Source: Mercenaria mercenaria
Taxonomy: Eukaryota
Assembly (NCBI RefSeq): GCF_021730395.1
Contig: NC_069369.1
Coordinates: 15,411,210 to 15,475,209, forward strand
Reading direction: 5' to 3'
Length of the DNA: 64,000 bases
Shown in pieces: positions 6,321 to 62,656 of the stretch (the stretch's first letter is position 1; every line of letters begins with the position of its first letter). The notes beneath the pieces were generated by a model. It saw only the letters and a list, made by a program, of their open reading frames with translations. It was not told the origin of the DNA and searched no databases. The position numbers were made by a program, and so were the translations under genes.

Positions 6321-6573
6321 TTACTTGGCCTGATCAGCATCATTAATATTGACTGGTCCGACAATTTTCTCATGGAATGTATATCCATTTGTCAGGTTTA
6401 GCTCTAGACACACTTCCAAGGCACGATTATGCACTAGAAACTTGAGTGAATCATTCTGCAGCAGATCACGAGACAGAAGATCTTCAAATGCAAGGATGGG
6501 CAACGTGAGATGATTATACCCAATATCTCTCAACTGTGTCACCATAGACTCAAGATAATGCAATGTCAACATC
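6321..6573 (-). CDS. Terminal coding exon of the large minus-strand gene (…MLTLHYLESMVTQLRDIGYNHLTLPILAFEDLLSRDLLQNDSLKFLVHNRALEVCLELNLTNGYTFHEKIVGPVNINDADQAK*)
   Basis: The acceptor ttacatatttcag precedes ATGTTGACA. The exon is an open frame ending at a TAA stop (plus-strand tta at 6321-6323). Its phase 0 start matches the upstream exon. Confidence 0.7.
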
Positions 6574-7053
6574 TGAAATATGTAACACAAAATGACAGAA
6601 AATGTAATGGCAATATTTGGAATATAACATATAGAGCTAAAAATAACATTGTTACCAACTGGAATACAAAACAGACAGACAGAAAATCAAATGTCAACAA
6701 TGGAAAACAGTGAGGCAGTAAGCAGGCAGGACTATACTGCCAGCAATCTGGTTGTGACTGATAGTGTTCTGTGCTGGGTGTTTTCTCCCACTTGGACCTG
6801 TTTTTACACTGTATTAGCATCAGCCTAGACTCAATGCTAGGAAAGTAAATATGACACCAGCTGTGGGCTTGGCTGGAAATAAGTGATTCTACCTAAGATG
6901 GAGAATTGTGTCGGATACCAATGTTAAATGAGATACCTTATAGCCTAACACATCTGGAAACGAACAAACAGACTGACAGATATAATAATGTCAACATTTG
7001 AAATTTTTGAATAAATGCACAAAGAAGAATGTAGTAGAGAAAAATTTACTTAC

Positions 7054-7122
7054 AGGTTTAACAATTGTGTGTTTATTAATGCCAGTTTCTTCCATCATCT
7101 CATGCTTGAATGCCTCAATTAC
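7054..7122 (-). CDS. Exon (VIEAFKHEMMEETGINKHTIVKP)
   Basis: Acceptor ttacag and donor gtaagt. The exon is 69 nt with phase 0 at both ends. Confidence 0.55.
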
Positions 7123-7308
7123 CTGTAAATTAAACAATATTTTTAATGTGTCAGTTATATAGTTATAGCACAGTGAAATATGAGGACAATAATCACTGAA
7201 CAATTGTTTTCCTCTCAATTTTACAATATAAAAACATAAAACATTGTTATGTAATGCACTATTATATTTAGATACTTGAAATGAACATTGTAATACAATC
7301 AAACATAC

Positions 7309-7515
7309 CTCGTCAGGAACATCATATACTGCCCACTCTTCCAGCGTGTTTGGTATCACGTCTAATGGTCCTTTACGTTTTGGTTTCTCCTTCACTGGAG
7401 CTTTTTCTGCCCCCTTATCCTTCTTCTTTGCTGACCCCTTGGGATCTTTTTCAATGGCTTGTGGAGGGTTCTTCAGGATCTCTTTCATTGTGGGGCCTGA
7501 TACTTTCACTGTCAC
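7309..7515 (-). CDS. Exon (VTVKVSGPTMKEILKNPPQAIEKDPKGSAKKKDKGAEKAPVKEKPKRKGPLDVIPNTLEEWAVYDVPDE)
   Basis: Donor GAG|gtatgt; the acceptor is probably atgcag|GTGACA. The exon is 207 nt in phase 0 and is Lys-rich low complexity. Confidence 0.6.
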
Positions 7516-7841
7516 CTGCATTATGTTATATTTTTTTAGGTCTCACACAACCTTTGACTTCTACGCAAATTTTTAATACACAGTACATGCTATTCCATCT
7601 GATTTTCCCTTTTTATTTGCCTAATATGATTTCACATGTAATTTTGTGTAATATTTGATCTGTCATATTTTTTTTATATTTTTTTTGAGATTCAAAAACA
7701 TTCAATTTCTTTGGTTTATGTACCTTTAAATCAATATCAGGTCTATAGACTCATTTTTTGAATTTTTTTTCCCCTACAGTTTGTTCTTGTGTTTTGATTT
7801 CATGATTAACTTCTGAATAGTGAAATTAAAAGTGTACATAC

Positions 7842-8011
7842 CTGCCAGAGTTTCATGAGATAAGCATGTGCCATGAGTAGGTAGTCAGCATACTGGGGTA
7901 ATCCTCGACCTACAATCTCAGCAAGAAGCACGTGCGCACGTATCAGACCATCAAGCACCTTAATATCTGTGATCTCCTGAATCTTCAGTGAGGGATTCGT
8001 TGGTAAAACAC
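7842..8011 (-). CDS. Exon (VLPTNPSLKIQEITDIKVLDGLIRAHVLLAEIVGRGLPQYADYLLMAHAYLMKLWQ)
   Basis: Acceptor cacag and donor CAG|gtatgt. The exon starts with 2 nt of a split codon and ends in phase 0. Two of its three reading frames contain stops. Confidence 0.6.
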
Positions 8012-8650
8012 CTGTGAAATTAAGTGTGATACATTCATTTTCCAGTAGTATTAATAAACTATTATACTTCCAAATTAAGGTCTTGGCTATGAATTCATAT
8101 CACTGCAGTTTTATCAAATAAAACCATATCTATTTTATCATACTGTATATAATCAAGACTTATTAAAAATCAGTTTACTTGCAATTTTTACAGTTTATAC
8201 AAGATTTACTTCAATCCCACCTCCAAGGTAATATCATCTCATCACATGACAAAGTGTCTGTGACAATGAATTTCTCTGAGCTTTTTTTTTAAACTGAATT
8301 GAATGAATTTTAAGAAATACATAAGCTTACTAAATTTCTAAATTCAATAAATATTTTTCAAACAATCTTTTCAGCATTTTATTTACTGAATAAAAACATT
8401 TTAACTTGGACTGAATATTACAAATTTCATGCATTTGCCATTATCCTTTACTCACTGCTTGGATTTTCCTAAATCCATGAAAAACAAGACTGCTAAACTG
8501 ACACAACATTCACCTATCATGCTGTTGGACTCATAAGCAAAATTATTTAAATATCAACAACTATTCCATAAACAAAGTGAAGTAATTCTCACATGTATCT
8601 ATTAATATTAATATGTTTCATTTTTACCATAACAAACATATAAACCCTAC

Positions 8651-8830
8651 CTATAACAGCCTCCCTGGCCTGAGGAACAATATCCTCTGCATTTATGTCA
8701 CTTCCTGTTCCATCACCTTTATCTTTGCCTTCTTTCTCCTTGATGCTGTCTTTAACCTGTGTTCTCTCCTTCTTGGCAGATGGTACTTTAGGTTTAGGAG
8801 GTGGTGCACCCTTCTTGTCTTTCTTTCCTC
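8651..8830 (-). CDS. Exon (GKKDKKGAPPPKPKVPSAKKERTQVKDSIKEKEGKDKGDGTGSDINAEDIVPQAREAVI)
   Basis: Acceptor tttctag and donor ATAG|gtaggg. The phase is consistent with both neighbouring exons. Confidence 0.6.
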
Positions 8831-9133: not shown

Positions 9134-10870
9134 AACAAGAGGGTCATGATGACCCTGGATCGCTCACCAGAGTAATATGAGCTACATTTTTCAAATGTCA
9201 AACTGATGATTTTTAGAAATTTTTTGTAAGATTTTCCGATGTACAATCAAGTAACCCCTGGGGCAGAGCCAATTTTACCCCGGGGGTCATCATCATCAGA
9301 TTTGAACAAAGTTTGTAGAAGTGTACTAGGCAATGTTACATATCAAATATCTAAGACCTAGGCCTTCTGGTTTATTTTTAGCAAATTTATGAAGATTTCC
9401 CAATGTACAATCAAGTAACCCCTGGGGCTGGGTCAATTTGACCCTGGGAGTCAAGATTTTAACAACTTTTGTAGAGGTCCAGTAGGCAATGCAACATGTC
9501 AAATATCTAAGCTCTAGGCCTTCTGGTTTATTTTTAGAAAATTTTGAAGATTTTTCTATGTACAATCAAGTAACCCCATGGGGCGGGGTCAATTTTGACC
9601 CCGGGGGTCATGATTTGAACAAATTTTGTAGAAGTCCACTAGGCAATGCCACATGTCAAATATCTAAGATCTAGGCCTTCTGGTTTATTTTTAGAAAAAT
9701 TTTGAAGATTTTCCTATGTAAAATCAAGTGACCCCTGGGGCGGGGTCAATTTTGACCCTGGGGGTCATGATTTGAACAAATTTTGTAGAGGTCCACTAGG
9801 CAATGCTACATGTGAAATATCTAAGCTCTAGGCCTTCTGGTTTATTTTTAGAAAAATTTTGAAGATTTTCCTATGTAAAATAAAGTGACCTCTGAGGCGG
9901 GGTGAATTTTGACCCCGGGGGGTCATGATTTGAACAAATTTTGTAGAGGTCCACTAGGCAATGCTACATGTGAAATATCTAAGCTCTAGGCCTTCTGGTT
10001 TATTTTTAGAAAATTTTGAAGATTTTTCTATGTACAATCAAGTAACCCCATGGGGCGGGGTCAATTTGACCCCGGGGGTCATGATTTGAATAAATTTTGT
10101 AGAAGTCCAGTAGGCAATGCTACATGTGAAATATCTAAGCTCTAGGCCTTCTGGTTTATTTTTAGAAAATTTTTGAAGATTTTCCTATGTAAAATCAAGT
10201 GACCCCTGGGGCGGGGTCAATTTTGACCCCGGGGGTCATGATTTGAACAAATTTTGTAGAGGTCCACTAGGCAATGCTACATGTAAAATATCTAAGCTCT
10301 AGGCCTTCTGGTTTATTTTAAGAAAAATTTTGAAGATTTTCCTATGTAAAATCAAGTGACCCCTGGGGCGGGGTCAATTTTGACCCCATGGTCATGATTT
10401 GAACAACTTTAGTAGAGGTCCACTAGGCAATGCTACATGTCAAATATCTTAGCTCTAGGGCTTCTGGTTTTTGAGAAGAAGATTTTTTAAGATTTTCCTA
10501 TGTAAAATCAAGTGACCCCTGGGGCGGGGTCAATTTTGATCCCGGGTTCATGATTTGAACAAACTTGGTAGAGGTCCACTAGGCAATGCCTCACACCAAA
10601 TATCTAAGCTCTAGGGCTTCTGGTTTTTGAGAAGAAGATTTTTAAAGTTTTTCCTTTCAGTTGCCATGGCAACCAGAATTCTGCATGGAATTCAATTCTT
10701 TGAATAACTTTGTAGAGCTTCACCCAAGGAACATTCCTGTGAAGTTTGGATGAAATTGTCCAAGCGGTTTATGAGGAGATGTCATTAAAAGTAAAAGTTT
10801 ACGGACGGACGCCAGACGGTGACTGATCCTAATAGCTCACCCTAAGCCTTTGGCTCTGGTGAGCTAAAAA
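9134..10870 (+). mobile_element. Non-autonomous tandem-repeat carrier element, Helentron/HINE-like
   Basis: 5' motif aacaagagggtcatgatgaccc. About 9 tandem units of about 158 bp (…ggggcggggtcaattttgaccccgggggtcatga…) run from about 9,290 to 10,650. A unique tail contains acggacggacgcc, followed by the 3' hairpin tagctcacc…ggtgagcta. Confidence 0.6.
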
Positions 10871-11458: not shown

Positions 11459-11506
11459 CTTTAGTGGCTTTCTTGGCTTCAGCAGCCTCTGCAGCAGCTT
11501 TTGCTT
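11459..11506 (-). CDS. Small exon (EAKAAAEAAEAKKATK)
   Basis: Acceptor caacag and donor AAAG|gtatgt. The exon is 48 nt. Its phase links the exon at 14831 to the exon at 8830, and its Ala/Lys-rich content matches the flanking exons. Confidence 0.4.
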
Positions 11507-14830: not shown

Positions 14831-15019
14831 CTTCTTCTTTCCTAGCATCAATATCAGCCTGCATATTCTGCATCATGTCTATAGCCCACTCTACCTGGTC
14901 TGTGCAGTCCTCTAGTGGGAAATCCTTCACACATAGCCACTGGGCAAACTCTAACAACAGCTCTATCTTCAACCATTCATTGCTCTGACTCTGTATAGTT
15001 GAATAATTATGCATCTTCA
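14831..15019 (-). CDS. Exon (…HNYSTIQSQSNEWLKIELLLEFAQWLCVKDFPLEDCTDQVEWAIDMMQNMQADIDARKEE); the 5' boundary is uncertain (15014 or 15019)
   Basis: Donor GAAG|gtaatt. Candidate acceptors are tttaaag|TG or gtgaag|ATG. The sequence is open and protein-like in only one frame. Confidence 0.5.
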
Positions 15020-15508: not shown

Positions 15509-15616
15509 ATTAAGTGCCTCAATAGCATTCTGGTAAGACAGTAGTTGTTCAGCAGTCTCCTTTGACATCAGTGCAACACGTCTCCACATATGTGCCACAT
15601 AGTCCTCACTCTCATC
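15509..15616 (-). CDS. Exon (DESEDYVAHMWRRVALMSKETAEQLLSYQNAIEALN)
   Basis: Acceptor ttttag and donor AAT|gtaagt. The exon is 108 nt in phase 0, and only one frame is open. Confidence 0.55.
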
Positions 15617-16829: not shown

Positions 16830-18185
16830 AACAAGATCGCTCACCTGACCTATTGACCTAAAGATCAGATCATCAAGATTAACATTCTGACCAAGTTTCA
16901 TTAAGATATGGTCATAAATGTGGCCTCTAGAGAGTTAACTAGCTTTTCCTTTGATTTGACCTAGTGACCTAGTTTTTGACCCCACATGACCCAGATTCGA
17001 ACTTTTATCCTCCTTAAGATCATAAAGATAAACATTCTGACCAAGTTTCATGAAGATACAATCATAAATGTGGACTCTAGATTATCAACAATTTTTACCT
17101 TTGATTTGACCTGGTGACCTAGTTTTTGACCCCAATTGACCCAGATTGGAACTTGACCTTTAGATCATTCAGATTAACATTCTGACCAAGTTTCATTAAG
17201 ATATGGTCATAAATGTGCCTCTAGAGAGTTAACTAGCTTTTCCTTTAATTTGACCTGGTGACCTAGTTTTGACCCCACATGACCCAAATTCAAACTTGAC
17301 CTAAAGATTATCAAGGTTAATATTCTGACCAAGATTCATGAAGATACAGTCATAAATGTGACCTCTAGAGTGTTAACAAGTTTTTCCTTTGATTTTTTGA
17401 CCTGGTGACCTAGTTTTTGTTCCCACATAATCCAGATTCGAACTTGACCTAGAGGTCATCAAGACAAACATTCTGATTAAGTTTCATAGAGATATTGCCA
17501 TAAATGTGGCCTCTAGAGTGTTAATAAGCTTTTCCTTTGATTTGACCTGGTGACCTAGTTTTTGATCCCATCCCGCCTGACCCAGAGTTGAACTTGGCCT
17601 ATAGATGATCAAGATTAACATTCTGACCAAGTTTCATTAAGATATGGCCATAAATGTGCCTCTAGGGTGTTAACTAGCTTTTCCTTTGATTTAACCTGGT
17701 GACCTGGTTTTTGAGGCTATAGGACCCAGATTCAAACTGGACCTAAAGATCATCAACATTTACATTCTGACCAAGTTTGATGAAGATACAGTCATAAATG
17801 TGGCCTCTAGAGTGTTAACAAGTTTTTCCTTTGATTTGACCTGGTGACCTAGTTTTTAACCCCAGATGACCCAATATCAAACTTGTCCAAGATTTTATTG
17901 AGGGTAACATTCTGACCATGTTTCATTAAGATTGGGCCAAAATTGTAACCTCTAGTGTGTCAATAAGCTTTTCCTTTGATTTGACCTGGTGACCTAGTTT
18001 TTGACCCCAGATGATCCAATATCAAGCTTGTCCAAGATTTTATTGAGGGTAACATTCTGACAAATTTCATTAAGATTGGGCCAAAATTGTGACCTCTAGA
18101 GTGTTAACAGTCAAATTGTTGACGACGGATGGATGAACGACTGACGACGACGGACACAGGGCGATCACAAAAGCTATAATTAAGG
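16830..18185 (+). mobile_element. Tandem-repeat carrier element
   Basis: 5' aacaagatcgctcacc, about 10 tandem units of about 120 bp (…aacattctgaccaagtttcattaagatatggtcataaatgtggcctctagag…), and a 3' (gacgacgg)-rich tail. Confidence 0.55.
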
Positions 18186-18958: not shown

Positions 18959-20225
18959 AACAAGAGCTGTCGGATGACAGCGCGCTCGACTATTCGAAGA
19001 ATTGATTGAAGAATGGGGTCAAAATATTTCCATAGATTTTCAGACAAAAGAAAAATATGGATTAAACAAAAAATGTTCCTGTATTTTTGGATTTCGATTA
19101 GTCTTGCACTAAATGGCAATGTGCAAGACCATGATGGCAAATATGTTAAGTTATATGTTAGGCAAAATATGGACTTGTATGAAAAATCTAACTAAATTCC
19201 AAGTCCAAAAAGGGTCATAATTCAGTCAAAATAGCTGACAGAGTTATGTACACTTGCCTACAGATGGAAATCATGTTGATATACTAGTGTTAAAAGTTTC
19301 AAAGCCACAGTTCAAATAGTTTTGACAAAAAATTCAAGTCCAAAAAGGGCCATAATTCAGCCAAAATAGTTGTCAGAGTTATGTACTCTTGCCTACAAAT
19401 GGAAATCATAATGATAAACAAGTGTTCAAAGTTTAAAAGCCATATGTCAAATAGTCTTGACAAAACATGGACATATACGAAAACAGAACCAATTTCCAAG
19501 TTCAAAAAGGGCCATAATTCAGCCAAAAAAGATGACAGAGTTATGTACTCTTGCCTTTTGATACAGACTATAATACTGAACAAGATATAAAAGTTTCAAA
19601 GCCATAAGTCAAACATTTTACACAAAATATAAACTGGTACGAAAAACTTAACCAAGATTTCTAAGTCAGAAGGGGCCATAATTCAGCCAAAATGCTTGAT
19701 GGAGTTATGTACTCTTGCCTACAACTGGACATGGTGATGGTAAACAAGTGTTGAAAGTTTCAAAGCTTTATCTCTAAAGACTTTGTCAAAATGTGGACTG
19801 GTACGAAAAACTTAACCAAGATTTCTAAGTCAAAAAGGGGCAATAATTCAACCAAAATGCTTGATGGAGTTATGTACTCTTGCCTACAACTGGACATGGT
19901 GACGGTAAACAAGTGTTGAAAGTTTCAAAGCTTTATCTCAAAAGACTTTGTCAAAATATGAACTGGTACGAAAAACTTAACCAAGATTTCTAAGTCAAAA
20001 GGGGCCATAATTCAGTCAAAATGCTTGACAGAGGTATGTACTCTTGCCTATAACTGGACATGGTGATGGTAAACAAGTGTTGAAAGTTTCAAAGCTTTAT
20101 CTCAAAAGACTTTGTCAAAATGTGGACTGGTACGAAAAACTTAACCAGGGTGTGACGCCGACGCCGACACCGACGCCGTGGTGAGTAGGATAGCTCTACT
20201 TATTCTTTGATTAGTCGAGCTAAAA
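18959..20225 (+). mobile_element. Tandem-repeat carrier element
   Basis: 5' aacaagagctgtcggatgacag, about 6 units of about 160 bp (…aaagggtcataattcagtcaaaat…gttatgtac…), a (gacgcc)n microsatellite, and the hairpin tagctctac…gtcgagcta. Confidence 0.6.
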
Positions 20226-22439
20226 ATGATAGATGTTTGCTAGTCACAGGAAATCATCATGCAAAGTGCATACTCCAGTTAAAAAACATATGGTTGACTG
20301 GCAAACAAAGAAATAGAGCGATGGACATAATGGTGAACATGAGCAAAAGAATACTGCAATGTCTCCCCCTCCCCACAAATGAATTGTCTTTATTTTATGA
20401 ATGCTTGAAGTATATATCTACACTATATCTATAAACTAACCAAATGACTTTCAACAGTTTCTAAACTGACCTCCAATTCTGTCTGCAGTCAGAAAATAAT
20501 CAATAATATCAAATTTAATCAGATCTTTTTTGTTTTGGTCTTAATTGCAACCCTCTCATCTAGTTATATTACAATGCAATAATATAGCTGTCTGCTACCT
20601 AAGTATCTACACAAATATGACATGGTAAACCCTGAAATCTGAAAGCCAATATTAAAAAATTGTCAGACTATAGTGAAACCTGTCTTAAGAGACCACTTAA
20701 GTGAGAGCAAAAATGTGGTCTTATAAGACAGGTGGTCTTTTAATACAGGTTCAATCTATATGAAATGTACTATAGAGGGACCTAAAATAAATGGTCTTAT
20801 AACACAGGTTTTGCCTAATATAGGTGGTCTCTTAAGCAGGTTTCCTTTCAAAATCACTGTTAATAGTGGAACTGAGAGATACAGTAGCTATAGAAACAAA
20901 CAATTTTTAGGAAGAAATACTTCCACCTAGCAGCTCTACTTCTAACAGACACTGTTATATTTGCTGCTCTCATCATCTGCTTAGACAGATGGACATTCCT
21001 GCATTTTTTTCAAGAGGAATGACTCCAGATGGTTAAAACAATAAAAATATTCATTTTTTTAAATTAGCTAGCAGTGTTTATTACATCTCTAAATAAACTC
21101 GTATCCATTGGTCAAAACTTCTACATTTCACACTGAATAAGTATCATTTTCAGTTTCAAGGATATTCCAAGCGGTATATAAGGTATAACGTATTGTACCT
21201 TCCGTATTGTATGCTGCCGGACTACTTTCATTAATATGCATGACCTGACAAAATTCTATAAATAGCACACATAAAACTTCACATAGTTCCATACACTGAA
21301 GATTTCGTTCAATAACAAAACAAGAAACAAAAGTTTACTCGAACCAAATACAGCATTCCGGATCGAGCTACTGTTATAATAATCCTTTTATACTAAGCTT
21401 TCAAAAAGTGTATTTCATATGTAAGAAAAAAAAGTAACAATATTAAGTTAAATGACATAAACAGGACGTTATACATTTTTGCATACTATTCCTATTCTGT
21501 CAAACTAATAAATGCTAATAAATCCATTGATGCTGGTTCCTACTTTTTGGTCTGAAAATGCTGCTTTATATAACAATACAATTGTTAACTCTTAAGCCAT
21601 CAGATATGATGTGATATTCAACAAAAGGCAGTAATAATGAACTCAGTTATTGTCTCGGTCATTACAGCCTTCTTCTGGTGACTATAACATCATATCTAAT
21701 GCCTTAATGGTATAAAATTAAGATATTAAAAATTATTTATCAATATTATTCAGTATGATATTTCATATAAAGTACAAGATAAAGAACATCTCAAATCCTT
21801 CTAATTCACTTGACTTTTCTACATTATTAATGTGACAGCACTAAGTGATCTAATATATTATCACAATGGATCACTTTGATTTTACTTTATTTTACACTTA
21901 CTACTGCATCATATCTTATACATTCTAATCCTGACCCTTTAACCAAATCATTCTTACAATGATTTACTACCTACTAGTATTTTTTTTCTAAACTGGCGTC
22001 TGTAAAATTAAGCCTTATTCTTACAATAAGCATAGAATCATTGTCAATTTCAAAAAGTTCTGCCTGCCTTGAAACACAACATAGTTTTCCATTGACTCTA
22101 GACTTAGCAAACACTTACCAAAGTTTGTTCCATCCATACATATTAAACATTTAAACAATGTAACATCTAAACATCAAAACACTTAAGTTACAACTAGCAA
22201 GGCTCTATCAGTTGTTGATCTATCCATTTTTCTTTTACAGTTACACATTTTTACACTAAGAAATAGCTTTGAAACTCAGTCATTTGAATTCTTTAAGTCA
22301 AATACGTTTAAAAGTATACATCTTAATGTCATATTTAAACTCAGAAAGTTTAACTCAAATGTATGAAATACTTGGACAGACTTCAAATTCTCGAGTTTCA
22401 ATAGTAATGCTACTAAGCTGACAACAGCAGACTAGATAC

Positions 22440-23135
22440 ACACAGGTTCCATTCATACACATTGGGTCCATTCATACACATTGGGTCCATTCATACACAC
22501 AGGTTCTATTCATACACTCTGTGACCCATTCATACATACTGGAACCACTCATACATACTGGGTCCCATTCATACACACTGGGTCCATTCATACACACAGG
22601 TTCCATTCATGCCCTCTGGAACCATTTACACACTCTGAGACCCATTCATACATACTGGGTCCCATTCATACACACTGGGTCCATTTATACATACTGTGTC
22701 CCATTCATATGCACTGGGACCATTCAAATACACTGGGTCCATTAAAACACACTGTGTCAATTCATACACACTGGGACCATTCATACACACTGGGTCCATT
22801 CAAACACACTGGGCCCATTCATACATACTGGGTCCATTCATACACATTGGGTCCATTCATACACATTGGGACCATTCATACACATTGGGTCCATTCATAC
22901 ACATTGGGACCATTTATACACACTGGGACCATTCATACACATTGAGTTCATTCATACACACTGTGCCCATTTACACACATTGGGACCATTCATACACTCT
23001 GGAACCATTCATTCAAATTGGGTCCATTCAAACACATTGGGTACATTCATACACAATGGGTCCATTCATACAAATTGGGAACATTCATACACATTGGGAC
23101 CACTCATACACACTGGCTCCATTCATACACTTTTC
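22440..23135. repeat. Minisatellite with a 19-bp unit (cattcatacacactgggtc), about 35 copies
   Basis: The period is visible by eye. Plus-strand track ORFs at 22481..23307 are all artefacts of the repeat. Confidence 0.8.
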
Positions 23136-26039: not shown

Positions 26040-26115
26040 CTTGAACTTTTGAATATCCATGGCAACACTTCTTCCTAATTTGGCTTTGGTTATAACACGA
26101 TGTTTGAAAATCAGC
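26040..26115 (-). CDS. Exon (LIFKHRVITKAKLGRSVAMDIQKFK)
   Basis: Acceptor tttttcag and donor AAG|gtcagt. Its 1-nt start complements the 2-nt leftover of the exon at 26571. Confidence 0.45.
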
Positions 26116-26570: not shown

Positions 26571-26641
26571 AGCCTGTGTTTTGTACGAGGCATGTCTGTG
26601 ATAGCTTGATCCATGGCCTGTAATCCAGCTTCCCATTCTCC
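26571..26641 (-). CDS. Exon (GEWEAGLQAMDQAITDMPRTKHR)
   Basis: Acceptor ttattacag and donor GCT|gtaagt. All three frames are open, so the frame was chosen for phase continuity with its neighbours. Confidence 0.4.
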
Positions 26642-27548: not shown

Positions 27549-27713
27549 CTTATCCGCAAAGGACTGGAAGAGGACACCATACAGGGCAGCTCTGAGTGTA
27601 AGATCATCTTCGACTGCTCCTATACCACCAACAGTCTTTTCTTCTTTCTCCTTTATTTCACCTACACCCTCTTCACTTAGCTCTTCATCTTTCTTCTCAT
27701 CATCAGTCTTTTC
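27549..27713 (-). CDS. Exon (EKTDDEKKDEELSEEGVGEIKEKEEKTVGGIGAVEDDLTLRAALYGVLFQSFADK)
   Basis: Acceptor cattttcaag and donor AAG|gtaggt. The exon is 165 nt in phase 0. Confidence 0.6.
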
Positions 27714-44415: not shown

Positions 44416-45414
44416 ACGGCTCATATCAAAATCTGTCAGAAAGTTCTAAAGATTCTTATATCTGAACTCTCAAGCACCTTTACAGAATCTTTACAGTCTT
44501 ACAACAGAACACCATAAATTTATAACCACTATACTTACTTTCTAGAAAGGCTAAGTGAGAGAGGAAAGAACAAGGAAACTATCTGAGGTAAATGCCTTTT
44601 AAGTCCATAGATCCTAAATATCTAAAAGATTTTATATAGTCCTCACACCTGTAATTAGTAAAATTAGTAAATGACTGACAAATGGAAAGAATTTAGTCAT
44701 AATATGTAAATGTGTTTTATTGCAAACTCTGCTTTTATCTGTAAACCACACAAGTTAGTAATTATTTTCCCTATTTCTGATATATATATATGTTCTTCTC
44801 TCTATCCACACTAGAATGGTAAATATCCATGCACCAAAAGCATGCTATATCATATACTGTACCGTTACTGTTCTTGCCAAGAGCAAGTTCAAGAGCTAAC
44901 ATACACAAATATCAAATATCAACACAAATAAACAAACATCAAAGATCAACAGAAATACACACACACAAACAGAAATATTGAAACATCAAATATCAACAGA
45001 AACATAACAAATCATTATCTGATGTGTAGTCAACAAATTTGAAAATGATAACGAAATTTAACGTCCAAAATGGGCTATCAATGATGGAAAATAATATCAT
45101 TCACATAACAATTTTCAAAACTTTGAAACAGTTATTATATTTTTTATCAATCCTTTTCACTCAAGGACTTCAAAAATGCCCCATATATGTATTTGAAAAA
45201 TTTGATATTAGAAGATTTTATAACACATATATTTATGAAACATACATAATAATGAATGAATTATGTTATTGAGGTGGTAATTCTTCTGTATAAAAGAAGG
45301 TTGACAGTTGCTCAATAAGCTCATATTCAGGGTAGTTTTATTCGGATATATATAGATTTGGTTAAAGCAACTGAAAAACAAGAGCAACACAATGCGGAGC
45401 AATATACGCCCTTA

Positions 45415-47018: not shown

Positions 47019-47136
47019 CTTTTGTGCTGCTTTCACTGTCCAGGACAAGGTTAAATGCATCAGGAGCTAAAGCTTCACCAGCCTTCACTAACAATGATCT
47101 CTTCATTCTCATTGTGCCAGAGTTAGCTTTCCTTGC
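47019..47136 (-). CDS. Exon (ARKANSGTMRMKRSLLVKAGEALAPDAFNLVLDSESSTK)
   Basis: Acceptor tttcag and donor AAAG|gtttgc. The exon starts in phase 0 and ends with 1 nt that matches the 2-nt start of the exon at 40562. Confidence 0.5.
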
Positions 47137-47895: not shown

Positions 47896-48027
47896 CTGCT
47901 CTATAATCATGCCAGCAATGTCTTCCACCCTCTCCGGCTGTTTGTAGAGTTCAGACCGAAGTTCAAGTCTGTGTAACATCACCTCAAGCCTCTCCTGATA
48001 GATCTTAGCATCATCTAGGGCAAGTGC
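47896..48027 (-). CDS. Exon (ALALDDAKIYQERLEVMLHRLELRSELYKQPERVEDIAGMIIEQ)
   Basis: Acceptor ...ttaacag and donor CAG|gtattg. The exon is 132 nt in phase 0. Confidence 0.55.
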
Positions 48028-49189: not shown

Positions 49190-49286
49190 CTTTTTCAGAT
49201 TTGTCATGGCAACTTCTATCTGTTCCACATCTTCCTCACATTTAGCAAGTTCTGTATGTACCTGACATCTCAACTGTACCAGCAAA
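49190..49286 (-). CDS. Exon (LLVQLRCQVHTELAKCEEDVEQIEVAMTNLKK)
   Basis: Acceptor ttttag and donor AAG|gttggc. Confidence 0.5.
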
Positions 49287-50992: not shown

Positions 50993-51183
50993 CTCTGTAT
51001 ATTTTCCAGGGCCTCAGCCACCAGTGTGAGGGGTTTGCGTACATGGTGTCTAAGGTTTGGTTGAAGCAGTGGCAAGCACAAGTTCCACTGGGTCACACAG
51101 CCGACCTGTATAACATTAGGGTTACCAAGACGTATGGCATTCATAATAACCTCCTCACATCTCTTTATAGCTTGCTGACGAAT
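50993..51183 (-). CDS. Exon (IRQQAIKRCEEVIMNAIRLGNPNVIQVGCVTQWNLCLPLLQPNLRHHVRKPLTLVAEALENIQ)
   Basis: Acceptor ...ttcag and donor AG|gtgggt. The exon is 191 nt. Confidence 0.55.
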
Positions 51184-51489: not shown

Positions 51490-51965
51490 AATAGGTTACG
51501 ACTTAAAATACTGGAGTCTTCTATACTGGAGTCTTCTATCTTCAAATAGCTAGGTTATGAGTGTTAAATACTGAAATCTTCCATCTTCAATAAGATAGGT
51601 TATGACTTGAATACGGAAGTCTTCTATCTTCAAATAGCTAGGTTATGAGTGTTAAATACTGAAATCTTCCATCTTCAATAAGATAGGTTATGACTTGAAT
51701 ACAGAAGTCTTCTATCTTCAAATAGCTAGGTTATGAGTGTTAAATACTGAAATCTTCCATCTTCAATAAGATAGGTTATGACTTGAATACGGAAGTCTTC
51801 TATCTTCAAATAGCTAGGTTATGAGTGTTAACTACTGAAATCTTCCATCTTCAATAAGATAGGTTATGACTTGAATAAGTAAGTCTTTTATCTTCAAATA
51901 GCTAGGTTATGACTTAAACACAGAAGTCTTCTATCTTCAACTACCTAGGTTATGTCTTAAATAAA
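51490..51965. repeat. Tandem repeat with a unit of about 120 bp, made of two subunits of about 60 bp (…tcttctatcttcaaatagctaggttatgagtgttaaatactgaaatcttccatcttcaataagataggttatgacttgaa…), about 4 copies
   Basis: The tandem period is visible by eye. Confidence 0.7.
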
Positions 51966-52053: not shown

Positions 52054-52153
52054 CATCAACAACATGTTTGTGTAGAGACTCTTGTTTCTCTGCTAGATGT
52101 TTTACCATGATATCACACTGTAGAAACTCAAGTTCCAGGTAGAATCCCTGATC
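52054..52153 (-). CDS. Exon (DQGFYLELEFLQCDIMVKHLAEKQESLHKHVVD)
   Basis: Acceptor ttggacag and donor GAT|gtaagt. The sequence matches part of minus-strand track ORF 51950..52171. Confidence 0.5.
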
Positions 52154-52627: not shown

Positions 52628-52727
52628 CTTCACATTACATGTCTTCATGTGATCCGCACAATCCTGAGCAAGATCTGGAAAGTCCAGCTCCAAACATAAC
52701 CTCGCTAATTCTAACAACAGGTAAGGC
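52628..52727 (-). CDS. Exon (PYLLLELARLCLELDFPDLAQDCADHMKTCNVK)
   Basis: Acceptor aatttcag and donor AAG|gtatga. Confidence 0.5.
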
Positions 52728-54099
52728 CTGAAATTATGATAAAACTTTACAAACTCACCCCTATCACTAATTCAACGCTGTAATTACTCATTTCTATCTC
52801 TAAATGCTTTACAGTATCTTCATAGACAATTAATATTTGAAAGCATAAGGCCAAACATAAATTTCCTATGCAGAAATTCTATAACATATCACAACTGATT
52901 CTGAATTTCAATTAAATATAAAGATATCTTTATTCTTCAAAATGCAAGACACTAAATACAATGTAAAGAAAATAATTCAACATAAATAATAATCACATAG
53001 GACCTAAACTGAAATTAAGTGTGTTTGCCCTTTACCTTCCAACCCAAGACCTGAATCTGCCAGGTACTTTCACATTAAATGGAGACTTGTGATTCTTTTT
53101 AATTTAGAGGTGTACAGTATTATAGTGATCACACCATTTCCTATGATGAAGTAATGAATTACCACACTTAATTATATCTAAGAAATCAAAATATCAGAAT
53201 TGTCAAGTTGGTTTTAATGATAATTGCTTTCTTACTGTTGAACTGTGATGACTATAATACAGTTTGTCAAAATATGCATAACATTTGGAAAAAGGCAACT
53301 GCACATGCACTGGACCAAGGGGAAGGCTTGGAATTGTTAAGGAAAGGCATACATGTAGTTTGTCCTTGACCATTCTTTAACACAATTTATCTAAACTTAG
53401 TTGTTTTATAGCAAAACTGTCTCTTGTAAATGAAATAGGCAAATTATTGAGAATACACATTAATGGTGCAGACAGACAAGGCCATACAGCCTGACATCTG
53501 CTTTGTCTCGTTAAGAAAACACGGGAGCCCTTGTAGGCATTTTTGAGTACGCAATAGAGTAGAACCTCAAATATTTCTCAAACAAACTGTCTCTGTCTGT
53601 CTCTCTCTCTCTCTATATATATAGTCTTATATTAAATAAATCATGAAATGAAAAGAAATAAGAACATTTATTTATGCTAACTGAATAATTTGAGAGGGTA
53701 AAATAATTACCTACCTACATACCTACCAAATGTTAAAAAAGATAAGCAGGTAAAGGGTAAACACACTTATAATTTTAATTTCTACCTAACCAATAATATC
53801 TACTAATCTAAAACAATGCAGAAATTGCATGGTTTTGTGTGAAAGCATTGTCATATATAAATATATAAAGTGAAGACTACAATCCTTATCTACTGTAAGC
53901 TTAGTGACTTCTAAGCTATGACTATACAAACCTGACCAGTAATAATGTACATCACTCCACGTCTATAGGACACATAAATATAGTGAATATTTTGTTTATC
54001 AGGTAAGTTTTGTCAGACTTTAGAAAAAGATATTTTAAAAACAATCTGAACTGAACAGGTGTTGTCCTGATGCAAAGGATTCTGGAACAGTAAGGCATC

Positions 54100-54655
54100 T
54101 GCCAAGTCTCTGACCTATGTTTGACAGTAAGGCATCTGCCAAGTCTCTGACCTATGTTTGACAGTAAGGCATCTGCCAAGTCTCTGACAAGTCTCTGACC
54201 TATGTGTGACAGTAAGGCATCTGCCAACACTCTGACCTATGTTCGACAGTAAGGTATTTGCCAAGTCTCTGACCTATGTTTAACAGTAAGGCATCTGCCA
54301 AGTCTCTGACCTATGTTTAACAGTAAGCCATTTTCCAAGTCTCTTACTTATGTTCGACAGTAAGGCATCTACTAAGTCTCTGACCTATGTTAGACAGTAA
54401 GGCATCTGCCAAGTCTCTGACCTATGTTTAACAGTAAGGCATCTGCCAAGTCTCTGACATATGTTTAACAGTAAGGCATCTGCCAAGTCTCTGACATATG
54501 TTTGACAGTAAGGCATCTGCCAACTCTCTGACATATGTTTGACAGTATTAAAGGCATCTGCCAAGTCTATGACCTCTGTTTGACAGTAAGGTATCTGTCA
54601 ACTCTCTGACCTATGTTTGACAGAAAGGCATCTGCCAAGTCTCTGACCTATGTTT
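54100..54655. repeat. Minisatellite with a unit of about 42 bp (tgtttgacagtaaggcatctgccaagtctctgacctatg), about 13 copies
   Basis: The tandem period is visible by eye. The 92-aa minus-strand track ORF 53952..54230 is an artefact of it. Confidence 0.75.
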
Positions 54656-54705
54656 GAGGTGATATCTTCTTTACAGGAGAGTTTATTTCACTACTATTTA
54701 CTTAC

Positions 54706-54786
54706 TTTTCCTGACTCTCTGCAGAGATTTTCTTGGTTGATGTTGGTGTTGGTGTACGTCTGCCAGTACCTTTTGTTGGACTTTTC
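54706..54786 (-). CDS. Exon (KSPTKGTGRRTPTPTSTKKISAESQE), Ser/Thr/Pro/Lys-rich
   Basis: Acceptor ...ttactag and donor AA|gtaagt. The phase links exon 60779-60832 to exon 52628-52727. Confidence 0.45.
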
Positions 54787-56789: not shown

Positions 56790-57668
56790 AAACTAGATGT
56801 GTCCATAGGACACAGGTGCCCCCACTCCTGCCACTGTAACAAGGTTTAATGACTCAGGTTAAACAATTTTTAAGATACAACATTCCTGTAGTTTTGTGAC
56901 TCTACATCAAATACTTTTGGAGCTATGCACGACAAAACATTAAAATGACAATATTTTCCTAGGTCAGGGGCCATAACTCCTACAATACTGAATGAATCCG
57001 GACACGAAACCCCAGGTGCACAACTGCACATGTGACCAACATTCCTGTAAACTTTGGTGACTCTAGGTTAAATACTTTCGGAGCTATGTGCGATACAACA
57101 TTAAAACGACCAATTTTTAACTAAGTCAGGGGCCATAACTCCTACACGACAGAACGAATCCGGACGCAAAACCCCAGGTGCACAACTGCACGTGCTGACC
57201 AACATTCCTGTAAACTTTGGTGACTCTAGGTCAAATACTTTTGGAGCTACACGCGATACAACATTGAAATGACCAATTTTAAACTAAGTCAGGGGCCATA
57301 ACTCCTACATGACTGAATGAATCGGATGCGAAACCCCAGGTGCACAACTACACATGCTGACCAACATTCCAGTAAAGTTTTGTGACTCTAGGTCAAATAC
57401 TTTTGGAGCTACGAGCAACACAACACTAAAATGACCAATTTTTACAAAGTTAAGGGCCATAACTCCTACACAACTAAATGAATCTGGACGCGAAACCCCG
57501 GGTGCACAACTACACATGCTGACCAACATTCCTGTAAAGTTTTGTGACTCTATTTCAAATACTTTTGGAGCTAGGCCCGACACAACATTCTTGGAAGGAC
57601 GGACAGACGGACGGACACACAAGAGCAAATCTATATGCCCCCACCACTCATGGGGGGGCACAAAAAGA
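56790..57668 (+). mobile_element. Tandem-repeat carrier element
   Basis: About 4.5 units of about 178 bp (…gtcaggggccataactcctaca…gaatccggacgcgaaaccccaggtgcacaactgcac…), then ggacggacagacggacggac, then the hairpin tgcccccaccactcatgggggggca. Confidence 0.6.
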
Positions 57669-58929
57669 TTGCCTAATACCTCATGTCCAGGTATATATTT
57701 AACATAAAGGTTTCTGGCAAATATTTTAATGCTCTAGTTTCCAAGAAAAGCAAGTCAAAATAAAAAACAACAACAGAAATATGAAAGTAAAATCTCATCT
57801 ACAAGATAATTTTATCAACATTGGTTTTGGACAGAAAATACAGATAAGACAGCAGAACATAAGTGAGTCAAGCCCCATTCATCTTCTTTCTGCTATCATT
57901 CCACTTGACCATAGTGAAGAAACTAAATAAACTATGTATACAGATTCACTAGAAGCCAGAGAGAATTTGCCATTTCTATTAGAAAGGTGGTACAAGTTAC
58001 ATTTGCTACAAATTATAGATATAAAAGCAAATGTACCGATCTGACTCCCTGTGGGTTTTCTGTTTCCTTTAAAGGAAATAATATAACAGATTAATGTAAC
58101 GTATTCTTTTAATTGCATTAGAATTACATGAATTTATTTTAAAAAACAAATGAATTTTAAGTAAAATACACAAAAATACCTCAGATATAGTCAGGTAAAA
58201 AGATTGAATACAAACTTTTCTTACAAAGGCATGAGGCTAATCAAAAATACTACTTAATGTTTTCATAAAACCATCAGAATATTTCACTAAAAATATACAT
58301 AAACATTGTCTGCGAGTTACTGAAATACTGGTGCACTGAAATCATTTCCTCCATGAGTTCTCCTTATCTAATATTTTTTCCGAAGACTCATAAATATATG
58401 AGCCAAATTGATTTTAATCTATGATAGGTTTACAGTATTTATAAAATAGTACAAAACACTACAATGCAGTATAATTATATTCATAGAAAGAAAAACATCA
58501 TTATTTAAAAAATCATTATTTCATCTACAACTTTAATATTCCTTAAATAACTTATTGTTCTTCAGCATCTTAAAATAATGTCAAGCTAGTTTGAACATGA
58601 ATCAATTAAAACTCACAAGCATAAAAGCAATTCAGCAATTCATTCATTCATTTGAAAAACATACACAAACAGAATCAACGCAGTTGAAATGTATTTCTAT
58701 TTCAAATATAACGTTTACCATTAAACTTAAAGTAATGGACCCATAATAAGAACTGGCAATTTATCCTCTGTATGAGACTTCAGCATTCTCCAAATGTAAT
58801 AAAGAATGATTTTGTTATAGCCGGATGATGCCTAAATCGCAAATAGAGAATAGGTAATCACACGGAATTTGCAGATTGTCATTACGGATCCGCTACCTTT
58901 AGATAGAATAAAATCTCTCAATGTGTTTA

Positions 58930-59619: not shown

Positions 59620-60155
59620 ATTTTAGAAGCACAACTGTCAAGAAGCATGAATTTGTCAAGAAGTATGCCTCGATGTATCACTTTAGAATTTACATTTGTC
59701 AAGAAGCATGCATCAATGTATCACTTTAGCATTTACATTTGTCAAGAAGCATGCATCAATGCATCACTTTAGATTTGACATTTGTCAAGAAGCATGCATC
59801 AATGCATCACTTTAGAATTGACATTTGTCAAGAAGCATGCATCAATGCATCACTTTAGAATTTACATTTGTCAAGAAGCATGCATCAATGCATCACTTTA
59901 GAAATTTTTATTTGTCAAGATGCATGCCTCAATGTATCACTTTAGCATCATTTTAGCATTTACATTTGTCAAGAAGCATGCCTCAATGCATCCCTTTAGA
60001 ATTTATATTTGTCAAGAAGCATGCCTTGATGTATCACTTCAGCATTTACATTTGTCAAGAAGCATGCCTAAATGCATTCAGAATTTACATTTGTCAAGAA
60101 GCATGCCTCAATGTATCACTTGTCAAGAAGCATGCCTCAATGCATCATTCTAGGA
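59620..60155. repeat. Minisatellite with a unit of about 43 bp (acatttgtcaagaagcatgcatcaatgcatcactttagaattt), about 12 copies
   Basis: The tandem period is visible by eye. Plus-strand track ORFs at 59497..60181 are artefacts of it. Confidence 0.75.
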
Positions 60156-60778
60156 ACATAACTACCCAGAATTTTACTTAATCATATGCTTACAGCCTTT
60201 AATGCATTAATAAAGAAAACTTTCCAATTCTACCCCAAAATGCATGGTTCTTTCCCAATATATAGCACTGAGAGAACCACCCCTGATCTTTACTCCTCAA
60301 ATAGCAAAGTCGCTGGAATCAAAATAATTCATCAATTCAACAGTATATATATCACCATCACCTTAGGCTTTCAGGAGAAACTGGGAAAATTGAAGGAAGG
60401 AAAAGGTAGGTAAAACAAACTCAGTTATCTGTGATCAGTCTACATTTCTGCATTTTCAGTGCCTGAATTCAATGATTAAACAATTTACTTTTTGTATATA
60501 TTATATACAACTTACGACAAGTATTCTGAGTACTGGTACTCAGTAGCTTCAATAATTACTGCAAATGGAACTTCTCAAATGTAAAAAAGAAGCCAAAATA
60601 GCATTATCTGGCAACACACAGGAAATATAATTTTAAAATTTCAACAATGTCAAAACAAGCGTAACAGCAAATAACAAAATTTCAGGCTGTAAAAATGTGG
60701 TTAGATGCAGTTTAACCTATGTTAGTATGATAAGGTATATATGATAAATAGCCCCTAACTGCGCAACAAGACTTTTAC

Positions 60779-60832
60779 CTAGATGCAGGTCTCCTATCTG
60801 GGCTTGACGATTTTACAGATTCTGCCCTTGCA
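60779..60832 (-). CDS. Small exon (ARAESVKSSSPDRRPAS)
   Basis: Acceptor cattag and donor AG|gtaaaa. The phase is consistent with its neighbours. Confidence 0.35.
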
Positions 60833-61123
60833 CTAATGTGAAACACAAACAAAAGAACCGTAACACCCAAATAACATCATTACTAATTATATAGAATAAT
60901 CTAAAGGCCAGTCCATGTGCTACAAAGTAGTTCTGTATGAGATTTCCAAACCCAAATATATAAAGTACTACAATAGATTTAGACATATTCTTAAATTTGA
61001 GATTGTGTAAAAAGTCAGAAAAAAGGTTTTCTAGCTGAACAATCTACAGGACAAAAACTCTAGCCAAAAAGCCTGTGATTCCTTTACCCAAAACATTTGT
61101 TTCCAATTTGTGCATACACTTAC

Positions 61124-61306
61124 ACTGTAGACCCCTCCCGGGAGGTCCTCACTGCAGGAGACCTCGACCTTGACTTGAGACTCTCATTTGTCTTTTCAGA
61201 CAGTAGAGCCTTTCTCAAGTCCCCATTTTTCAATTTGGGTGCAGGGGACTTTCCCTTCAGAGAATCAGGCAGAGATAATTCACTCACTTCACGTGACATT
61301 AAATCA
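61124..61306 (-). CDS. Exon (DLMSREVSELSLPDSLKGKSPAPKLKNGDLRKALLSEKTNESLKSRSRSPAVRTSREGST)
   Basis: Acceptor ttacag and donor GT|gtaagt. Confidence 0.45.
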
Positions 61307-62379
61307 CTGTAATCAAATTTATTTATTATGTTACTTATACTTTCTAAACCAGTCTAAATCTAGCTGAAATAACATAAAAACCAGCAAAGAATACAACTGA
61401 TTTAGTGATTTAACACAGAATATGAATTTACTAAGTACATTTAAAAAATTATAAATTATCTGTGTCGGCTCCACTTGTGATGTATACGAACTCATTTAAT
61501 AACCATTTTCTTATTGTTGTTGTGTTTTACCCATATTTAAACATTTCTTTGAAATAAAGTTAAGTTTTGTTTTACATTGTATAATTTTCTATCTATCTTC
61601 TCTTCAAAAGAAATTCACGTTTATTAGCTAAAAAGTTGACTAATGACCCAAAGCAAAAGCAGTTGGTCCTTTCAAAAACAACATAGATATCAGCTAACTG
61701 CTAGAAACAAAAAACATACTATGCAAAAACTGCAGTGACACACACTAATGTAGGTCTGATCAACAACATTTTGCTGGCAGGACCTGGTGTATTTAGACTT
61801 TTTACTATATGTTTTACTTTTCTCCCTTTTCCTTGGACCAATACTGTTAATTTTTCATTTAATAAACTGAGAAACCAGCAATTTCCTAAGCCCTGCTTAT
61901 TACTGTATGAAACTAAGACAATTACATACTTTAACAAACTGTAAGTCACTGTGTATGCGACATATTAAGGAATTCAAGAAACACAGGGCTTCTGTTAATC
62001 TACATTTAAAGTTGGAAATTCAGGGTTACTTAATTTTATTAACACATGTTTTGAAGCATTTGTTCCTTGTAAATCAAAGACTGCATGGTTAAATTCTGTA
62101 TAAGCTAGAACAACTTTACACCCAGATTCACACAAAGTCTCCGCAGACTTTGAGGGTGCCAAGCAATGTTACTTTTGGGTGAAACTATTTCCTGCTTAGA
62201 ATGGTGATCAACAGAGTCCCCTGTGTCGTTCTATATGGGAAAAAACACTGCTGAGGTAAACGTCACTAGAGACAGTTATCTCATTGTAAAGATCTTATGA
62301 TAAGGATTCTGTTGCAAATCAAAACTAGGGTTTTCAGTCTCAGGTTAGGTTTTTATATATAAAAAAAAGTGGGTTTACG

Positions 62380-62545
62380 GTAAAACTGTCAAATTTAAGC
62401 AGTTGGTTACTAGTCTAGACTGTGGCTGACAAATTTAATCAGTTCATTTCCAGTCTCAACTGTGCCTGTTAAATTTAATCAGTGGGTTTTAAGTCTTGGG
62501 AAGGGCAGTTAAATTTAATCAAATGGTTTTCAAGTCTTGTGAAGG
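62380..62545. repeat. Short tandem repeat with a unit of about 40 bp (…ttaaatttaatcag…ggtt…agtct…), about 4 copies
   Basis: The tandem period is visible by eye. Confidence 0.5.
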
Positions 62546-62563
62546 GATTTTCAACTGCCTTAC

Positions 62564-62656
62564 TCCTTAGTCATGAGAGAGTTACGTCGCCCTCGGAAAC
62601 TGGCTTCTGGCGGAGGATCAGCCCCAGCTGAACTACGGTCAAGAGAACTTCCAGAT
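62564..62656 (-). CDS. Exon (SGSSLDRSSAGADPPPEASFRGRRNSLMTK); the 5' end may extend upstream
   Basis: Donor GA|gtaagg. The acceptor AG is at about 62657, but the frame stays open a little further upstream. The gene probably continues beyond the window. Confidence 0.4.

Follow-up and report, generated by a model that had tools for sequence, protein, structure and literature searches.

A minus-strand locus of the hard clam Mercenaria mercenaria that very probably encodes the central part of CFAP46

CFAP46 is a subunit of the C1d projection, forms a heterotrimer with CFAP54 and CFAP74, and is a primary ciliary dyskinesia gene; FAP46 of Chlamydomonas reinhardtii, the family's founding member, is a C1d subunit too (PMC11651342). 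The C1d localisation and the association with CFAP54, CFAP74 and CFAP221 are known in Chlamydomonas, human and mouse (PMC11651342, PMC12297659). In situ, CFAP46 contacts SPAG6, LRRC43 and CFAP74; PDB 9IJJ represents the mouse in-situ sperm central apparatus, and mammalian CFAP46 is structurally different from the algal protein (PMC12297659).

Comparison with described CFAP46 proteins

As a whole, positions 6325-61306 on the minus strand of the analysed window of 64,000 nucleotides are best explained, with high confidence from sequence comparison, as the central 57% of the M. mercenaria orthologue of CFAP46 (FAP46/TTC40). The hard-clam gene is an ordinary one that was annotated before. The best database match is the NCBI entry 'cilia- and flagella-associated protein 46-like [Mercenaria mercenaria]' (P0021, 2455 aa), with over 100 CFAP46 orthologues below it that range from molluscs to mammals and include a sponge. 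Nearly all named entries among the 136 matches with E<=1e-5 are CFAP46, TTC40 or C10orf93, with no competing family, and a search of the PDB with the concatenated exons returned CFAP46 and FAP46 only. A Pfam search of the pieces encoded in the window gave no family match; PF25439 (TPR_CFAP46_N, N-terminal TPR repeats) is found in full-length P0021 at residues 4-149 (87 bits, cut-off 27), and the part of the gene encoding it falls outside the window.

Mouse CFAP46 (PDB 9IJJ chain A) is colinear with the clam protein over residues 286-1587 (E=3.6e-228, ~37-40% identity), with residues 134-1186 of the clam draft aligning to 286-1277 in one alignment that extends to 1587. Both share helical blocks, e.g. 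QWN(L/I)CLPLLQ-NLRHH-RKPLT, and the mouse protein has Lys/Glu-rich low-complexity linkers at the same two positions as the Lys/Ala/Pro-rich ones of the clam. The Ser/Arg/Lys-rich linker before residue 286 is longer in the clam, whose model lacks the equivalent of mouse residues ~830-880. Chlamydomonas FAP46 (PDB 7N6G chain 1N, 7SQC) is also colinear (E=4.8e-29; draft 1019-1419 to FAP46 1141-1524) but very divergent, and only blocks align. Much closer are the proteins of Mactra antiquata (P0022), Mytilus coruscus (P0023) and Mya arenaria (P0025), with 78%, 60% and 59% identity, respectively, over 94-95% of the draft.

Exon structure within the window

The gene consists of many small exons and runs off both window ends. 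The 32 exons within the window have canonical GT-AG sites, one junction excepted in the fit to P0021, and join into 1408 codons without a stop once one A is removed at 40433-40436. The resulting translation is identical to P0021 residues 303-1710 at 1408 of 1408 positions, an agreement that is not independent evidence if the P0021 model was predicted from the same assembly. An independent spliced Logan transcript from a related species (SRR6473827, L001) agrees with the boundaries of eight consecutive exons, and the codon-usage score is +0.39 for the exons versus -0.16 for chance intronic open reading frames. The exons, all on the minus strand, are as follows.

Exon 1: 61124-61306 (-), 183 nt, aa 302-363, Ser/Lys/Arg-rich linker; 100% tblastn identity and GT-AG fit to P0021
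Exon 2: 58037-58066 (-), 30 nt, micro-exon KQKTHRESD; exact peptide match, GT-AG sites; 8/9 residues the same at this place in Mya arenaria
Exon 3: 54706-54786 (-), 81 nt, aa 373-400; fits P0021
Exon 4: 52628-52727 (-), 100 nt, aa 400-433, PYLLLELARLCLELDF; fits P0021 and transcript L001; first exon aligning to mouse CFAP46, from residue 286
Exon 5: 52055-52153 (-), 99 nt, aa 434-466; fits P0021
Exon 6: 50993-51183 (-), 191 nt, aa 467-530; fits P0021 and the relative's transcript
Exon 7: 49190-49286 (-), 97 nt, aa 530-562; fits P0021 and the transcript
Exon 8: 47896-48027 (-), 132 nt, aa 563-606; fits P0021 and the transcript
Exon 9: 47019-47136 (-), 118 nt, aa 607-646; fits P0021 and the transcript
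Exon 10: 44863-44895 (-), 33 nt, in-frame cassette micro-exon ALELALGKNSN; in the NCBI model only
Exon 11: 40432-40562 (-), aa 657-700; 131 nt as written, 130 nt according to the protein
Exon 12: 37672-37806 (-), 135 nt, aa 700-745; fits P0021 and the transcript
Exon 13: 36952-37144 (-), 193 nt, aa 745-809; fits P0021
Exon 14: 35186-35319 (-), 134 nt, aa 810-854; fits P0021
Exon 15: 34388-34600 (-), 213 nt, aa 854-925; fits P0021
Exon 16: 33814-34030 (-), 217 nt, aa 925-997, 3' end ...DLKKAIE; fits P0021
Exon 17: 30522-30632 (-), 111 nt, aa 998-1034; fits P0021
Exon 18: 29763-29941 (-), 179 nt, aa 1035-1094; fits P0021
Exon 19: 29277-29408 (-), 132 nt, aa 1094-1138; fits P0021
Exon 20: 28709-28880 (-), 172 nt, aa 1138-1195; fits P0021
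Exon 21: 27549-27713 (-), 165 nt, aa 1196-1250; fits P0021
Exon 22: 26571-26641 (-), 71 nt, aa 1251-1274; fits P0021
Exon 23: 26040-26115 (-), 76 nt, aa 1274-1299, 3' end ...DIQKFK; fits P0021
Exon 24: 25744-25788 (-), 45 nt, in-frame cassette micro-exon NEMRYLNSSRSKKKK; in the NCBI model only
Exon 25: 15509-15616 (-), 108 nt, aa 1315-1350; preceded by a 10.1-kb intron
Exon 26: 14831-14990 (-), 160 nt, aa 1351-1404; fits P0021
Exon 27: 11459-11506 (-), 48 nt, aa 1404-1420, Ala/Lys-rich linker
Exon 28: 8651-8830 (-), 180 nt, aa 1420-1480, Lys/Pro-rich linker
Exon 29: 7842-8011 (-), 170 nt, aa 1480-1536; fits P0021
Exon 30: 7309-7515 (-), 207 nt, aa 1537-1605, with the second Lys-rich linker
Exon 31: 7054-7122 (-), 69 nt, aa 1606-1628; fits P0021
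Exon 32: 6325-6572 (-), 248 nt, aa 1629-1711; 100% identical to P0021, aligns to mouse CFAP46 until residue 1587; last exon recognisable in the window

In agreement with the initial annotation, which proposed a single multi-exon gene on the minus strand for a large structural, possibly ciliary or axonemal protein, the exons show homology to one protein, and CFAP46 serves as a scaffold in the central apparatus (C1d projection) of motile cilia. An AG acceptor precedes 31 of the 33 exon starts listed there; 26 starts coincide exactly with P0021, three are off by 1-29 nt (37803 for 37806, 15019 for 14990 and 6573 for 6572), and four are absent from P0021 and all orthologues. At exon 26, only an acceptor at 14990 combines GT-AG sites with a perfect match to ALN|SQSNEWLK, in accordance with the mouse alignment. 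Both peptides quoted were found (exons 51183-50993 and 52727-52628), while the micro-exons 58066-58037, 44895-44863 and 25788-25744 had been overlooked. The agreement of codon phases, considered unlikely by chance, is weak evidence alone. The introns hold 106 chance candidates (AG, an open reading frame of at least 90 nt, GT); the chain is made certain by homology.

The P0021 model differs from other bivalve orthologues in carrying the two cassettes 44895-44863 and 25788-25744. As 44895-44863 is absent from the Mactra, Mytilus, Mya and Plakobranchus proteins and from the relative's transcript, it is probably alternative. The second is absent from all other bivalves and vertebrates compared, where QKFK|DESEDY is read directly.

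Neither of the two gaps suspected of missing exons holds a missing conserved exon. Other bivalve CFAP46s read straight across the joins 47136->40562 and 26115->15616. The region 26040-15616, contiguous in all orthologues, is one long intron with at most a 45-nt cassette inside, and the phase conflict between 40432 and 38381 arises from a false exon and a 1-nt discrepancy of the window. The four exons without a counterpart are:

38305-38381 (-): rejected as a chance intronic open reading frame; no homologue, codon score -0.19 (non-coding), skipped by the relative's transcript
31710-31853 (-): 144 nt, unsupported; not homologous to the conserved segment that belongs at this place (rank 247 of 1523 against its profile, E=130) and looks like a chance in-frame open reading frame
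62564-62656 (-): 93 nt, in-frame, within the intron preceding exon 1; weak purine-rich acceptor, codon score +0.42; possibly a cassette exon or a chance open reading frame
60779-60832 (-): 54 nt, in-frame; good splice sites, codon score +0.28; possibly a cassette exon

The latter two are missing from P0021 and every orthologue compared.

Gene ends and reading-frame discrepancies

As had been supposed, the gene continues 5' of the window. No sequence coding for P0021 residues 1-301 is found anywhere in it, and the exon upstream of 61306-61124 lies past 64000. A 3' end within the window, with a stop at 6321 and a Lys/Ala/Pro/Ser-rich C-terminal tail, did not hold. An in-frame TAA does follow ...DADQAK directly, and no downstream exon was found at 1-6324, but the triplet lies within a strong splice donor.

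6319-6324 (-): splice donor GTAAGG (AA|GTAAGG), containing TAA 6323-6321

P0021 proceeds in register past exon 32 (...DADQA|KEKELAKL...) for 744 residues, encoded beyond the 3' side of the window (residues 1712-2455), and mouse CFAP46, whose alignment reaches the exon's final residue at mouse position 1587 of 2641, continues as well. The low-complexity stretches are internal (P0021 residues 1396-1480 and 1548-1585 of 2455), and lie ~130-300 residues before the supposed stop, with well-conserved helical sequence after them. Such stretches occur at matching positions in mouse CFAP46 and Chlamydomonas FAP46. A complete 3' end is thus effectively refuted. The Ser/Lys/Arg-rich and Lys/Ala/Pro-rich exons code for linkers inside the protein, presumably disordered, which separate blocks of helices.

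Positions 1-4815 are homopolymer-stretched over 4.8 kb, with a mean run length of 2.2-2.8 versus 1.3-1.5 elsewhere in the window, probably an artefact of an unpolished or stuttered long-read consensus. The block occupies the expected place of the next CFAP46 intron and exons; no CFAP46 signal was detected in it, even when run lengths were allowed to vary freely.

Two further features bear on the integrity of the gene.

40433-40436 (-): A-run GAAAAG, one A longer than fits the annotated protein and the mRNA of the relative; frame broken at the 40432->37806 junction
33411-33573 (-): decayed relic, VCEYV...VRMP*IQTWV...IIK*LGL, of an exon of ~150 nt conserved in orthologues; skipped in the NCBI model

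As written, the window has no uninterrupted CFAP46 reading frame, as canonical 40432->37806 splicing shifts the frame and leads to a stop eight codons on. The extra A is missing from P0021, and the 4 nt of the window correspond to 3 nt in the relative's transcript. Most likely, the assembly contains an error of 1 nt in this homopolymer. Alternatively, splicing from a donor at 40428 (GTTT|GTGCAA) to 37804, where cagAG offers a second AG, could rescue the frame; these are GT-AG sites, and the draft of 1456 codons that they produce is open, reading ...REKVSRLWG.... We consider this very unlikely: it relies on a weak donor, RE-R-ARLWG, one residue fewer, stands in both P0021 and the relative's mRNA, and every other bivalve protein is colinear with that reading.

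The relic at 33573-33411 shares its intron with the chance open reading frame 31853-31710. Its splice sites are intact, while its body contains frame slips and 2-3 stops. It is recognised with Mactra as query (tblastn E=2.7e-6) and by the orthologue profile, which scores 23.3 bits here (E=2.2e-6) and no more than 6.3 bits across 1137 intronic windows used as a null. Of 140 orthologue sequences, 99 have the segment, but P0021 lacks it; other bivalves keep this VCEY...LGLDEE exon, which is degenerate in the clam window. Together with the surplus A in the last bases of exon 40562-40432, the dead exon might indicate a decaying or pseudogenised CFAP46 copy in which both lesions are real. That the 32 exons remain without a stop after removal of one A, with every splice site intact, coding-like codon usage in every exon and whole-length identities of 78% to Mactra and 60% to Mytilus, renders such decay highly improbable. 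Moreover, the dead exon (~150 nt) keeps the frame when skipped, and the lone indel sits in a homopolymer of a window with 4.8 kb of gross homopolymer artefact, in an assembly built from noisy PacBio CLR reads with wtdbg2 (PMC8905726).

Implications for the C1d scaffold

By orthology, the product of the clam gene would be a large scaffold of alpha-helical repeats in the C1d projection, which sits on the C1 microtubule of the central pair in cilia and flagella. Normal ciliary beating would depend on the subcomplex that it would form there with CFAP54 and CFAP74. The relic would represent a conserved exon that Mercenaria no longer uses. We give slightly less than an even chance to a true loss in Mercenaria of this 50-aa CFAP46 exon, conserved across animals as distant as vertebrates, amphioxus and other bivalves, or to the relic being a regulated 'poison' exon. 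If the loss is real, the C1d scaffold of the clam would function without about two helices.

Identity and extent of the gene

A concatenate of six exons matched residues 292-535 of mouse CFAP46 (PDB 9IJJ chain A, 2641 aa) with E=3.6e-66, and the Chlamydomonas orthologue FAP46 was also matched. A 32-exon draft (1456 codons without stops) was colinear with mouse residues 286-1587 (E=3.6e-228). In a database search its best match was P0021, the NCBI protein 'cilia- and flagella-associated protein 46-like [Mercenaria mercenaria]' (2455 aa), followed by more than 100 CFAP46 orthologues. By tblastn, P0021 aligned to the window exon by exon with ~100% identity, and a junction-by-junction fit yielded zero-mismatch canonical GT-AG solutions everywhere except at one junction. 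Judged by its sequence, the gene is hard clam CFAP46: once one A is taken out, the translation of the final 32-exon model matches P0021 residues 303-1710 at every position (1408/1408). The fit and the orthologue matches bear out the initial annotation in its structural intuition of one large multi-exon gene on the minus strand. Within the window, 4,228 exonic nt are distributed across 54,982 bp, with introns of 871 nt (median) and at most 10,127 nt.

The gene had been proposed to end at a stop at 6321, after a low-complexity C-terminal tail. The last exon in the window, exon 32 (6572-6325; exons are counted from 61306 downwards), ends with ...GAT CAG GCC AA|GTAAGG, and the supposed stop is the TAA at 6323-6321 within this donor. 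Mouse CFAP46 could be aligned to the last residue of exon 32, which corresponds to mouse position 1587 of 2641, and P0021 continues (...DADQA|KEKELAKLADIPEEDE...) for 744 further residues. As neither these residues nor residues 1-301 of P0021 have coding sequence inside the window, the CFAP46 gene extends past both window ends. The Lys/Ala/Pro-rich stretches are internal linkers (P0021 residues 1396-1480 and 1548-1585) and not a tail; at their positions mouse CFAP46 has Lys/Glu-rich linkers and FAP46 has low-complexity regions. PF25439, the only Pfam domain of the CFAP46 family, covers P0021 residues 4-149 and lies outside the window; the pieces encoded in the window gave no Pfam match. A search of 54.8-64 kb and 5.3-6.3 kb against PDB sequences (5,000 residues of six-frame pseudo-protein) found no CFAP46-like exon, hence residues below 286 and above 1587 of the mouse protein are not recognisably encoded there.

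Exon chain, micro-exons and a conserved exon

Most of the exon chain drawn by eye was retained. An AG directly precedes 31 of its 33 starts on the minus strand; for 37803 and 6573 an AG lies 3 nt and 1 nt away, respectively. At most of the starts just one long frame is open, and both peptides quoted with the chain are found in the window. Compared with P0021 and the orthologues, 26 starts are exact, four are unsupported and three are misplaced:

Misplaced exon starts, corrected by the P0021 junction fit
37806, minus strand: exon start previously placed at 37803
14990, minus strand: exon start previously placed at 15019
6572, minus strand: exon start previously placed at 6573

The phase agreement of consecutive exons had been taken as unlikely by chance. 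A loose donor/phase dynamic program over the same starts proved too permissive, accepting 'exons' of 7-26 nt and chaining nearly anything, so phase agreement alone was dropped as evidence. Chance candidates (an AG, an ORF of at least 90 nt and a decent GT) number 106 in the window introns.

The unsupported exons, at 38381, 31853, 62656 and 60832, were found neither in P0021 nor in any of 140 orthologue sequences, of which 29 were matched by a control exon of similar size. For reference, real exons have a codon score of +0.39±0.20 and chance ORFs of -0.16±0.22. Exon 38381 was rejected with a non-coding score of -0.19, and it is skipped in the spliced CFAP46 mRNA of a related species (Logan SRR6473827). 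Exon 31853 scored +0.06; its origin as a diverged duplicate of a lost conserved exon was discarded, as it ranked 247 of 1523 against the orthologue profile (E=130). Exons 62656 (93 nt) and 60832 (54 nt) are both in frame, share the Ser/Arg/Pro-rich composition of the adjacent exons and scored +0.42 and +0.28, respectively; they may be alternative cassettes or else chance ORFs. As a calibration, by-eye chaining found 29 of 32 real exons; two to four of its other exons, its stop and its 'tail' were false.

Micro-exons absent from the by-eye chain, from the P0021 fit
58066-58037, minus strand: micro-exon
44895-44863, minus strand: micro-exon
25788-25744, minus strand: micro-exon

Micro-exon 58066-58037 has a counterpart in Mya arenaria. 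The other two, of 33 and 45 nt and both in-frame, occur in the Mercenaria model only, with no counterpart in Mactra, Mytilus, Mya, Plakobranchus or vertebrates; the proteins of these four genera and the relative's transcript skip them, matching the joins drawn by eye. They could be alternative cassettes peculiar to this species or else artefacts of the annotation.

A segment of ~50 residues (VCEYVIEVTNG...QTWVAAKQMAQQQI...LGLDEE) between DLKKAIE and PWTEGQ is present in 99 of the 140 orthologue sequences and missing from P0021. A relic is found in the window:

33573-33411, minus strand: relic of the conserved CFAP46 exon, with good acceptor and donor, frame slips and 2-3 stops; skipped in the clam model

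Against the orthologue profile the relic reached 23.3 bits (E=2.2e-6), and 1137 intronic controls reached at most 6.3 bits. Its identity is 40%, versus ~80-100% in the flanking exons. As this divergence arose mainly by substitutions, real decay of the exon appears the better reading than sequencing noise.

Phase conflict at exon 11 and probable homopolymer artefacts

Two gaps in the chain had been attributed to missing exons. Across 26040->15616 the protein reads DIQKFK|DESEDYVAHMW, which is contiguous in mouse (EIQKFKDEKESYLASMW) and in every bivalve compared, so this gap is a single long intron with a 45-nt cassette at most. The phase conflict between 40432 and 38381 needs no missing exon, since 38381 is false and 40432->37806 is out of frame. 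Exon 11 (40562-40432) ends with GAAAAG in the window (40433-40436, minus strand) instead of the GAAAG needed by the protein, which puts the junction out of frame; uncorrected splicing reaches a stop eight codons on.

From the window DNA, P0021 can be reproduced only via a non-canonical AG...CA intron or a one-base deletion. The frame at 40432/37806 could also be restored by a different GT-AG pair, 40428/37804, though a weak one. The relative's mRNA has 3 nt at the site where the window has 4. For the published clam assembly, noisy PacBio CLR reads were assembled with wtdbg2 and polished with short reads (PMC8905726). Given this and the gross homopolymer artefacts in the window, a 1-nt homopolymer error in the assembly is the likeliest origin of the surplus A.

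In window 1-4815 the mean homopolymer run is 2.2-2.8, compared with 1.3-1.5 elsewhere, and runs of at least 4 make up 40-60% of the bases; small islands of ordinary sequence lie in between. The idea that the block repeats another part of the window in stuttered form was rejected, homopolymer-compressed blastn giving short chance matches only. When run lengths were left free in a purpose-built protein-to-DNA alignment (positive control 180, its null at most 25), no CFAP46 exon was recovered from this block, which scored 23 against a null of 20-27. The block is probably unpolished (or stuttered) long-read consensus.

Introns and the role of CFAP46

The window is AT-rich (GC 33.8%) with strong CpG depletion (observed/expected 0.33), and its introns are crowded with repeats, among them tandem arrays built of 145-164-nt units (80-95% matches, no array above 9 copies) and shorter minisatellites:

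Intronic repeats
9209-10655: tandem array
16867-18109: tandem array
19336-20147: tandem array
41406-41966: tandem array
56878-57589: tandem array
62971-63298: tandem array
22436-23130: minisatellite, 19 nt x 36
24559-25177: minisatellite, 42 nt x 15
51523-51963: minisatellite
54087-54657: minisatellite
59651-60121: minisatellite

The intron below exon 32 is GC-richer (40-45%) at 4840-5800, where at least two repeat units of ~115 nt (…caacgcaacataggca…tatagtgaagca…gacaacggaatgcaac…gggcctcaccagtacca…) are seen by eye, unreported by Tandem Repeats Finder at a score of at least 80. Nested genes or RNAs were not detected in the window (zero tRNA or Rfam matches), and long intronic ORFs were dismissed as read-throughs of tandem repeats without a Pfam domain. 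Bases 1-300 of the relative's transcript (1400 nt) have an Illumina adapter-like start (…CTACACGACGCTCTTCCGATCT). The sequence after it resembles the 3' end of the intron that precedes the counterpart of exon 52727, and so points to a retained intron or a piece of pre-mRNA.

The clam gene is real, ordinary and annotated already, and CFAP46 is a well-described central-apparatus protein; hence, the importance lies mostly in annotation quality. Likely problems for users of the assembly and annotation are the 1-nt frameshift in a constitutive exon and the 4.8-kb homopolymer-stretched block within the gene, and for the gene model the skipping of a conserved, now degenerate exon and the inclusion of two cassette micro-exons found in no other bivalve.

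Motile cilia and flagella are essential to bivalve gills and sperm. In its subcomplex CFAP46 is partnered by CFAP54 and CFAP74, with CFAP221 more distal. Without CFAP46, Chlamydomonas shows impaired flagellar motility, and in humans its loss leads to primary ciliary dyskinesia (PMC11651342). The in-situ structure of mouse sperm places it on the C1 microtubule, touching SPAG6, LRRC43 and CFAP74 (PMC12297659). By orthology, the clam protein may act in the same way, and its sequence gives no sign of another role.
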